64,000 nucleotides of DNA from Escherichia coli (lineage in GTDB: Bacteria; Pseudomonadota; Gammaproteobacteria; Enterobacterales; Enterobacteriaceae), in the NCBI RefSeq assembly GCF_003334255.1, contig NZ_QOWU01000018.1. One strand, given 5' to 3'. This document shows, one piece after another, positions 5,114 to 7,809 of the stretch; the first letter of the stretch is position 1; every line of letters begins with the position of its first letter. Made by a program: the position numbers and the translations under genes. The notes beneath the pieces were generated by a model that was given only the letters and a program-made list of their open reading frames with translations, did no database searches and was not told the origin of the DNA.

Positions 5114-5530
5114 TTAAAAATCGGTTGAGTTATTTTGTAAACCCGAAACCTGGATGGTCGAGGTTTGTCCGGTTTTACGATCTGTCACGTTCAACTGCAA
5201 TTGACCATCGCGGTTGGCAATATCGATAATATAATCGTTGGTCACCATGCGGCCCGGTTTACCGGTATTAATATTCGACAGTAGCCCACCTAAAATTTGT
5301 GACTGGATGGCCTGAGTAAAGTTATCTAACGCTGAGGGTGTTTCAATACCAAAGTCATCGTTATAGCTCGGATCTTTATAAGAGTTTTGGGCCTGAGCGC
5401 TATTTAATAAAAAAGCGCCATTATTTGGGTTACCACCAAAGTTTGGATTACGGAACTGGAAAGTCATGGTTCCAGCCCAACTTAATGGCGAAATAAGCAT
5501 GAGTAGAACTACTGCATGTTTGACACGCAT
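5114..5530 (-). CDS. csgF: Curli assembly protein CsgF
   Basis: 138 aa with signal peptide; in csgDEFG order. Confidence 0.95.
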
Positions 5531-5554: not shown

Positions 5555-5944
5555 TTAGAATTCATCATGCGCCAAATCGCCCGTACTTAATAACGCCTGA
5601 TTTATTTGGCGACGATTTAGTGCTTCTTCAGTTTGAATCAGTGCAAAGACGACAGTTTTCTCGAAGTCTCTTTTCAACGGAAATAAAAAAGTCTGGAAAA
5701 TAACGTCCTGATTGACCGTTATAGTGATCCAGCTTCCCCATCGTGCACTGGGCCTTTCATTAATCGTTAAGTTACCCGTATAGTCACTTTCCCATTTATC
5801 ACTAAAGGCTCGGTAAAAATCATGGCCAATAGATGAAACAGTATGGTCAGTTAGCAATCCCGGGACTTCTACCTCAACGGCGTGAAGATTCCCTGCGGCG
5901 AACAGAAATTCTGCCGCCACAATCCAGCGTAAATAACGTTTCAT
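5555..5944 (-). CDS. csgE: Curli secretion specificity factor CsgE
   Basis: 129 aa with signal peptide. Confidence 0.95.
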
Positions 5945-5948
5945 GGCT

Positions 5949-6599
<651 letters not shown>

Positions 6600-7353
6600 G
6601 ATGAAACCCCGCTTTTTTTATTGATCGCACACCTGACAGCTGCCTCTAAAATAGAAGCACCAGAAGTACTGACAGATGTTGCACTGCTGTGTGTAGTAAT
6701 AAATCAGCCCTAAATGGGTAAAATATAAAACTAATGGATTACATCTGATTTCAATCTAGCCATTACAAATCTTAAATCAAGTGTTAAACATGTAACTAAA
6801 TGTAACTCGTTATATTAAAATGTTAACCTTAAGGTTTTATTAAGTTTAGAAATGATAGAAAAGTTGTACATTTGGTTTTTATTGCACAATTTTAAAAAAT
6901 CATACAAATGGTGATAACTTACTAATAATGCATATAAAAAATATTTCGGTGTAGTCCTTTCGTCATGTAAAACGTTCTTGTTTTTTCTCCACACCTCCGT
7001 GGACAATTTTTTACTGCAAAAAGACGAGGTTTGTCACGGCTTGTGCGCAAGACATATCGCAGCAATCAGCGACGGGCAAGAAGAATGACTGTCTGGTGCT
7101 TTTTGATAGCGGAAAACGGAGATTTAAAAGAAAACAAAATATTTTTTTGCGTAGATAACAGCGTATTTACGTGGGTTTTAATACTTTGGTATGAACTAAA
7201 AAAGAAAAATACAACGCGCGGGTGAGTTATTAAAAATATTTCCGCAGACATACTTTCCATCGTAACGCAGCGTTAACAAAATACAGGTTGCGTTAACAAC
7301 CAAGTTGAAATGATTTAATTTCTTAAATGTACGACCAGGTCCAGGGTGACAAC
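6600..7353. promoter_or_regulatory. Divergent csgD-csgB intergenic control region (csgD promoter and long 5' leader, csgB promoter)
   Basis: 754-bp AT-rich spacer between divergent csgD and csgB start codons. Confidence 0.85.
6781..6806 (-). promoter_or_regulatory. OmpR-type binding site in the csgD promoter
   Basis: Minus-strand sequence GTTACATTTAGTTACATGTTTAACAC matches the csgD OmpR box as I recall it; sits about 180-210 nt upstream of the csgD ATG. Confidence 0.55.
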
Positions 7354-7809
7354 ATGAAAAACAAATTGTTATTTATGATGTTAACAATACTGGGTGCGCC
7401 TGGGATTGCAGCCGCAGCAGGTTATGATTTAGCTAATTCAGAATATAACTTCGCGGTAAATGAATTGAGTAAGTCTTCATTTAATCAGGCAGCCATAATT
7501 GGTCAAGCTGGGACTAATAATAGTGCTCAGTTACGGCAGGGAGGCTCAAAACTTTTGGCGGTTGTTGCGCAAGAAGGTAGTAGCAACCGGGCAAAGATTG
7601 ACCAGACAGGAGATTATAACCTTGCATATATTGATCAGGCGGGCAGTGCCAACGATGCCAGTATTTCGCAAGGTGCTTATGGTAATACTGCGATGATTAT
7701 CCAGAAAGGTTCTGGTAATAAAGCAAATATTACACAGTATGGTACTCAAAAAACGGCAATTGTAGTGCAGAGACAGTCGCAAATGGCTATTCGCGTGACA
7801 CAACGTTAA
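7354..7809 (+). CDS. csgB: Minor curlin subunit / nucleator CsgB
   Basis: ORF 7327..7809; start at ATG 7354 (MKNKLLFMMLTILGAPGIAAA) gives 151 aa. Confidence 0.95.
   Translation: MKNKLLFMMLTILGAPGIAAAAGYDLANSEYNFAVNELSKSSFNQAAIIGQAGTNNSAQLRQGGSKLLAVVAQEGSSNRAKIDQTGDYNLAYIDQAGSANDASISQGAYGNTAMIIQKGSGNKANITQYGTQKTAIVVQRQSQMAIRVTQR

Follow-up and report, generated by a model that had tools for sequence, protein, structure and literature searches.

The csgD-csgB intergenic region of a K-12-like Escherichia coli strain: a curli control region whose OmpR repeat contains a perfect RstA box

We analyzed a 64-kb stretch of Escherichia coli DNA (hereafter the window) and found that positions 6600-7353 are almost certainly the control region that the divergent operons csgDEFG and csgBAC share, in the form of the K-12 allele. 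These operons are those of curli, a biofilm fibre. With the start codon of csgD, on the minus strand, at 6599 and the annotated ATG of csgB at 7354, the gap between the two genes amounts to 754 bp; the ORF listing starts csgB at an upstream ATG, at 7327. All 754 bases are the same as positions 1103197-1103950 of MG1655 (NC_000913.3), which lie between csgD and csgB, the flanking genes are also the same, and the numbering of the window follows NC_000913.3 from position 1096598 on. The same length is given for the K-12 region in PMC12713406. An initial annotation had called this stretch an unusually long, AT-rich and divergent curli control region, and each part of this description held up. The region lies between the divergent csgDEFG and csgBAC operons, is orthologous to the K-12 region and presents a G+C content of 34.5%, relative to 50.8% for the whole window. 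In the equivalent MG1655 annotation of the first 50 kb, it is the longest of 57 inter-feature gaps, the runner-up being a gap of 735 bp beside serX. We found no evidence contrary to this reading.

The region is widespread in the species: it was found in 5330 of the 5426 complete E. coli genomes (at least 80% coverage). Fifty-four genomes presented no match and 42 more presented a partial match only; six of the matches in this collection are carried by plasmids. We then used CsgD as the query against a single genome of each species and obtained 80 loci. Of these, 75 presented csgD and csgB as a divergent pair, with a separation of 742-802 bp at 73. A total of 77 intergenic regions from about 20 genera were aligned with MAFFT and weighted for redundancy, and conservation was defined as the fraction of sequences agreeing with the K-12 base. 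The features of the region and their conservation are listed in Table 1.

Table 1. Features of the csgD-csgB region and its flanks. Coordinates are those of the window, relative positions refer to the csgD +1, and conservation was determined across the 77 aligned regions.
Feature	Coordinates	Strand	Relative position	Conservation	Sequence or remark
csgD (b1040)	5949-6599	(-)			216-aa ORF; csgE, csgF, csgG downstream
csgD-csgB divergent intergenic region	6600..7353	(.)		0.57	754 bp, 34.5% G+C
csgD leader (5' UTR)	6600..6746	(-)		0.89 (+50..+88)	147 nt
csgD core promoter	6753..6780	(-)		0.86	TTGATT 6780..6775, 16-nt spacer, TAGATT 6758..6753, +1 A6746
OmpR activating site, D1-type (placed by sequence)	6781..6806	(-)	-60..-35	0.85	tandem GTTACATTTA / GTTACATGTT plus TAACAC
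RstA box	6804..6791	(-)		0.85 (OmpR/RstA box)	TACATTTAGTTACA; exact, unique match to consensus TACATNTNGTTACA, within OmpR repeat
MqsA palindrome	6825..6836	(.)	-79..-90	0.44	AACCTTAAGGTT; exact, unique match
MlrA binding site	6860..6893	(.)	-114..-147	0.70	AAAGTTGTACA-N12-TGCACAATTTT; exact match
Conserved distal block	6894..6928	(.)		0.76 (6894-6910)	ATTTGTATGATTTTT at -150..-164, then IHF-consensus-like element at ~-166..-182
Central spacer	6937..7176	(.)		0.35	near-constant length
Conserved islands in spacer	7016-7023; 7030-7040		~-294..-270 (csgD strand)		GCAAAAAG; TTTGTCACGGC
Short ORF	6815-7006	(-)			from ORF listing
Short ORF (fourth)	6922-7065	(-)			
Short ORF	7031-7225	(+)			from ORF listing
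Short ORF	7066-7260	(-)			from ORF listing
csgBAC promoter module	7177..7296	(+)		0.72 overall	
Candidate CsgD box	7219-7229	(+)		0.90	CGGGTGAGTTA; matches CGGGKGAKNKA
Invariant -10-like sequence, putative csgB -10	7249-7254 (hexamer CATACT)	(+)			GACATACT
CpxR-like sequence	7262-7276	(+)			GTAACGCAGCGTTAA; 2 mismatches; without statistical weight alone
Repeated decamer, two copies	7270-7279; 7290-7299				GCGTTAACAA; presumed csgB leader; 20 bp apart
csgB translation-initiation region	7332..7353	(+)		digits 8-9 (77 sequences)	CGACCAGGTCCAGGGTGACAAC before ATG
csgB (b1041)	7354-7809	(+)			annotated start ATG 7354; csgA, csgC downstream

Beyond the region, the first 50 kb of the window differ from MG1655 by 11 substitutions and a single indel, a 1-bp insertion at 24635. 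The substitution at 5227 leads to V102I in CsgF, the one at 5606 in csgE is silent, and nine other positions differ. Positions 1-77 do not match ycdU of MG1655: they derive from an IS1, whose terminal inverted-repeat end they represent, and a transposase of this element is annotated here in the genomes that match best. The strain is therefore K-12-like and carries an IS1 within ycdU or next to it. At 364-986, upstream of the tRNA-Ser gene serX (968-1055), we also observed ~181-bp tandem repeats, which are annotated as RtT sRNA in other RefSeq genomes.

The csgD promoter was located from its transcript. The csgD UTR is reported to be 147 nt long and to be the target of seven Hfq-dependent sRNAs (PMC6061853). 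This length places the +1 at A6746, with TAGATT as the -10 element at -12..-7 and TTGATT as a -35-like hexamer. Across 13 genera, CTAGATTG and CACTTG do not vary. Serra et al. swapped out exactly this interval, thereby removing the native RpoS-dependent promoter, as indicated by their primers (PMC5014196). A generic sigma-70 scan yielded 2 matches relative to 3.6 expected and the csgD promoter was not among them; such a scan is uninformative for an RpoS-type promoter. The transcribed leader accounts for 147 of the 754 bp and constitutes the sRNA-targeted part of the hub, which was absent from the initial annotation. The minimum free energy fold of the leader is somewhat better than those of shuffled sequences (z = -2.28) and includes the CCCAUUUAGGG hairpin described in PMC6061853.

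The leader also matches the Rfam family RF02752 (ES056 sRNA) at 6746..6655 on the (-) strand, with a score of 119.7 bits relative to a gathering threshold of 43 and over positions 1-92 of the 92 of the model. The match is full-length and the family is typed as sRNA in Rfam, as would be expected if ES056 were an independent small-RNA gene and not part of csgD. We consider this improbable, however, since the 5' end of the match is base 6746, which is exactly the +1 deduced from the 147-nt UTR, and since the match covers +1..+92 of a leader that reaches the csgD start codon without interruption. The 3' end of the match presented no terminator-like site. In addition, sRNA-induced RNase E cleavage of the csgD leader is documented (PMC6061853) and would yield such a fragment. 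ES056 thus most likely represents a fragment of the csgD leader and not a separate gene. A literature search on the name ES056 returned nothing relevant, only unrelated chemistry.

Upstream of this promoter, two OmpR half-sites, GTTACATTTA and GTTACATGTT, occupy 6806..6787. With the +1 at 6746, the repeat spans -60..-41, is centered at -50.5 and adjoins the -35 element. The initial annotation had quoted a 26-mer on the csgD strand as matching the OmpR site of this promoter, and the reverse complement of 6781-6806 is exactly that sequence (GTTACATTTAGTTACATGTTTAACAC). This assignment proved correct: the sequence lies at the D1 position and agrees, save for one base, with the motif determined by OmpR ChIP-exo. 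That motif is GTTACATTTTGTTACAT, and csgDEFG belongs to the OmpR regulon (PMC5438342); the window reads GTTACATTTAGTTACAT, the differing base being in the spacer. The pattern GTTACATnnnGTTACAT was found exactly (no mismatches) once in the 64 kb when searching both strands and in 0/100 dinucleotide-preserving shuffles. The OmpR repeat is not a chance match.

The published record places the site at the same location. PMC13304067 puts the activating D1 site of Salmonella at about -51. In E. coli, the D1 (equivalent) site is the only OmpR site described as footprinted in PMC10002515, which also cites a genomic SELEX study for a further site of OmpR-P, downstream of csgD P1. A W3110 csgD recombineering primer ends with ...GAGTTACATTTAGTTACATGTTTAACAC, directly upstream of the replaced promoter (PMC5014196), which is independent evidence that the box sequence adjoins the csgD -35 element on its upstream side. 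The features of a D1-type OmpR site were found together: tandem GTTACA-type 10-bp half-sites, a center at about -50, and alignment and conservation among orthologs. According to the literature, this would be the site that is bound by OmpR-P and needed for activation; we placed it here by its sequence.

The conservation of the box is 0.85, relative to 0.57 for the whole region, and reaches 0.89 for its two heptamers. In an alignment of 13 genera, Salmonella enterica among them, TACAT, GT.ACA and TTAACACTTG are invariant. Variation affects the first G of the upstream GTTACA (0.2), most genera presenting TTTACAnnnnGTTACA, and because this G is not conserved, the exact double GTTACA is confined to 4/77 aligned regions (three besides the row of the window itself). 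Within E. coli, the 61-bp core extending from the -10 element through the OmpR box (6750-6810) is at least 99% identical in 4798/5313 genomes. The box aligns to the csgD promoter of S. enterica and to 11 other genera; alignment to characterized csgD promoters was the comparison on which the initial annotation had staked its reading, and the reading stands.

Known OmpR-dependent promoters provide further points of comparison. In Salmonella, csgD (agfD) presents OmpR sites D1, D2 and D3-D6; the gene order is as in the window and the intergenic region is 760 bp long in subsp. diarizonae. The Salmonella D1 site, TTTTACATTCTGTTACAAGTTTAACAC, aligns to the box of the window, and the -35 and -10 elements are common to both, but overall identity between the S. 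enterica intergenic region and the window is only 64%. Moreover, opposite effects of H-NS and RcsB have been reported for Salmonella and E. coli (PMC12388358; PMC12713406), and Salmonella lacks the MqsA palindrome, unlike the window. The F1 and C1 sites of ompF and ompC resemble the csgD site in presenting head-to-tail GTTACA-type half-sites with 10-bp spacing beside the -35 element (PMC5438342). The porin promoters, however, carry hierarchical arrays of three or four OmpR sites (PMC10002515), in contrast to E. coli csgD, which presents a single high-affinity OmpR site, shared with RstA, at an RpoS-dependent promoter.

The initial annotation had not mentioned that the OmpR repeat doubles as a perfect RstA box. 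The RstA consensus is TACATNTNGTTACA, and extensive overlap of RstA and OmpR sites has been reported at csgD (PMC4117788), with which the perfect box inside the repeat agrees. Both observations would also fit a repeat that is mainly an RstA site, responding to acid and low-Mg signalling via PhoQP-RstBA, rather than an OmpR site. This appears highly improbable: deletion of ompR abolishes curli expression but deletion of rstA was without effect in the same screen (PMC12713406), and far tighter binding of this DNA by OmpR than by RstA has been reported (PMC4117788). The repeat also agrees with the OmpR ChIP-exo motif. The two readings are not exclusive, since use of this DNA has been reported for both regulators, and we retain the repeat as an OmpR site that RstA may share.

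Several elements were identified further upstream of csgD. PMC4894380 locates the MqsA palindrome 78 bp upstream of the start of csgD. Its conservation is poor outside Escherichia, and the flanking TTAACATTTTAATAT is conserved. In the 13-genus alignment, the palindrome is present in the E. coli row, already altered in E. albertii, and absent from Salmonella, Citrobacter, Enterobacter and other genera. The MlrA operator, AAAGTTGTACA-N12-TGCACAATTTT as quoted in PMC3509220, was found once in the window and in 0/100 shuffles, and it is located upstream of the OmpR site; strong conservation was observed for TGTACAACTTT and GTGCAA. Immediately distal to this operator is a further conserved block, in which the Salmonella and Citrobacter bases aligned at ~-166..-182 read AATCAATATATTA. 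The IHF consensus is WATCAANNNNTTR, which we take this element to fit, making it a putative IHF site. In a review, the IHF site of Salmonella is put at -181 (PMC13304067), and the reported position of MlrA is between those of IHF and OmpR (PMC3913822). More generally, shared or competed use of the upstream 200 bp has been described for RstA, MlrA, IHF, MqsA, RcdA, RcsB, CpxR and H-NS (PMC12388358, PMC3535384, PMC12713406), and ompR, mlrA, ihfA, csgD and rpoS are all needed (PMC12713406).

On the opposite side of the region, we defined a csgBAC promoter module in which AGTATGTC and CTCACCC are near-invariant across 17 species. The csgB promoter is reportedly preceded by a CsgD box with the 11-bp consensus CGGGKGAKNKA, and the sequence CGGGTGAGTTA, which matches it, is a candidate for this box. 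A literature search for the consensus string returned no match. The pattern was found twice in the window relative to 0.52 expected, and this second match elsewhere makes the pattern weak by itself. The second exact match, CGGGTGATAGA (33826-33836), is inside flgA and probably arose by chance; cross-regulation of flagellar genes by CsgD has been reported. The hexamer CATACT would constitute the csgB -10 element, from which a putative csgB transcription start follows. We rejected CpxR site calls made by scanning for GTAAA-N5-GTAAA with 2 mismatches, which gave 87 matches in the window relative to 54 expected; the consensus being too degenerate, only the csgB-side match was retained, as "CpxR-like". 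Both copies of GCGTTAACAA are kept across genera (with GTTAACGC as core), and the first copy overlaps a near-palindrome, GTAACGCAGCGTTAAC, that is CpxR-box-like.

The promoter modules of csgD and csgB are separated by a central spacer whose sequence is scarcely conserved. Over the 266 bp of 6911-7176, conservation is 0.36, which is near the level of saturated divergence. Its length, however, remains at 262-277 bp in 74 species of about 20 genera (sd 3.5, CV 1.3%). The csgD-proximal block (6747-6910) measures 162-165 bp in 74 species, and the block with the CsgD box (7177-7229) measures 53-54 bp. In contrast, the transcribed leaders are better conserved in sequence but vary more in length (CV 4.6% and 6.8%). 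The distance from the CsgD box to the csgD -35 element is 431-444 bp in 68/69 species. Helical phasing of the inter-promoter distance was not supported (mean resultant length of 0.34, where 1 is perfect phasing). The AA/TT periodicity of 10.5 bp over 6747-7270, a stretch wider than the spacer, was exceeded by 0.7% of shuffles (five periods tested) and is consistent with published intrinsic curvature. H-NS binding from -69 to -339 has been reported in Salmonella (PMC13304067).

Exceptions to the constancy of length are two Kosakonia species whose regions measure 586-589 bp. In E. coli VTB97420v, a chicken isolate (NZ_CP178690.1), an IS1A lies in the spacer at the equivalent of 7110-7119, with a duplication of about 9 bp at the target site, and the distance between the promoters is more than doubled. 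Two conserved islands were also found inside the spacer. On the csgD strand they read CGTGACA and then TTTTT(C/G), the second being TTTCTTAAG in many genera. We searched the literature for mapped CRP sites that might explain these islands (7016-7040) and found nothing usable.

Three of the short ORFs exist as listed, with 63-64 codons each, and the initial annotation had set them aside as AT-rich noise. That one or more of the three encodes a small protein is barely conceivable: each short ORF, the fourth included, is intact in just 1-2/77 aligned orthologous regions, and other species of Escherichia already present broken frames (0-5 stops, or lost starts). They span the least conserved DNA of the region (0.35) and none is annotated in MG1655. 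Their near-absence as intact frames from the orthologous regions indicates that they are indeed noise. A foreign or horizontally acquired origin of the AT-rich DNA was rejected because the neighboring genes and the length are unchanged in about 20 genera.

The retention of length as against the loss of sequence raises the possibility that the distance between the csgD and csgB promoter modules is itself under selection. We regard this as a tentative and somewhat doubtful reading of the alignments. It is the sole lead here that is modestly new, is possibly absent from the literature, and is the one aspect of the region on which additional work might be worthwhile. If true, it would imply an architectural need, such as a loop shaped by H-NS/IHF, or a bridged filament whose contour length is fixed, by which both promoters are coupled; the bimodal on/off expression of curli could have its basis in this coupling. 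A spacer of constant length and free sequence would offer a testable handle on the coupling of divergent promoters by nucleoid proteins.

These elements can be assembled into a working model of the region. What we computed here is the identity of the region, the positions and matches of its motifs, their uniqueness in the window and their conservation across the phylogeny; protein binding and the direction of regulation are taken from the literature, and we infer the role of the spacer, the IHF site, and the csgB -10 element and start. In this model, the RpoS-dependent csgD promoter would be activated by phosphorylated OmpR, which would bind the tandem GTTACA repeat beside the -35 element as a head-to-tail dimer and could recruit RNA polymerase from there. 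The same repeat would be open to occupation by RstA. The MqsA palindrome, the MlrA site and the IHF-type site would act from further upstream, within the block of near-invariant length (-1..-164). Once transcribed, the csgD mRNA would be subject to Hfq-dependent sRNAs that repress translation or trigger RNase E cleavage at its 147-nt leader. CsgD itself would act about 470 bp away, at the conserved box overlapping the csgB -35 position, and would switch csgBAC on. The AT-rich center with its phased A-tracts may serve as the substrate for an architecture built by H-NS and IHF.

The csgD-csgB control region is already known in detail, and the initial annotation was right to present it as well studied and not novel. 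Its confirmation here brings no new biology, and it places the window on a K-12-like chromosome near 1.10 Mb. It is at this region that the commitment of E. coli and Salmonella to the production of biofilm matrix is decided, which makes csgD-csgB a textbook example of the integration of signals at a single promoter.
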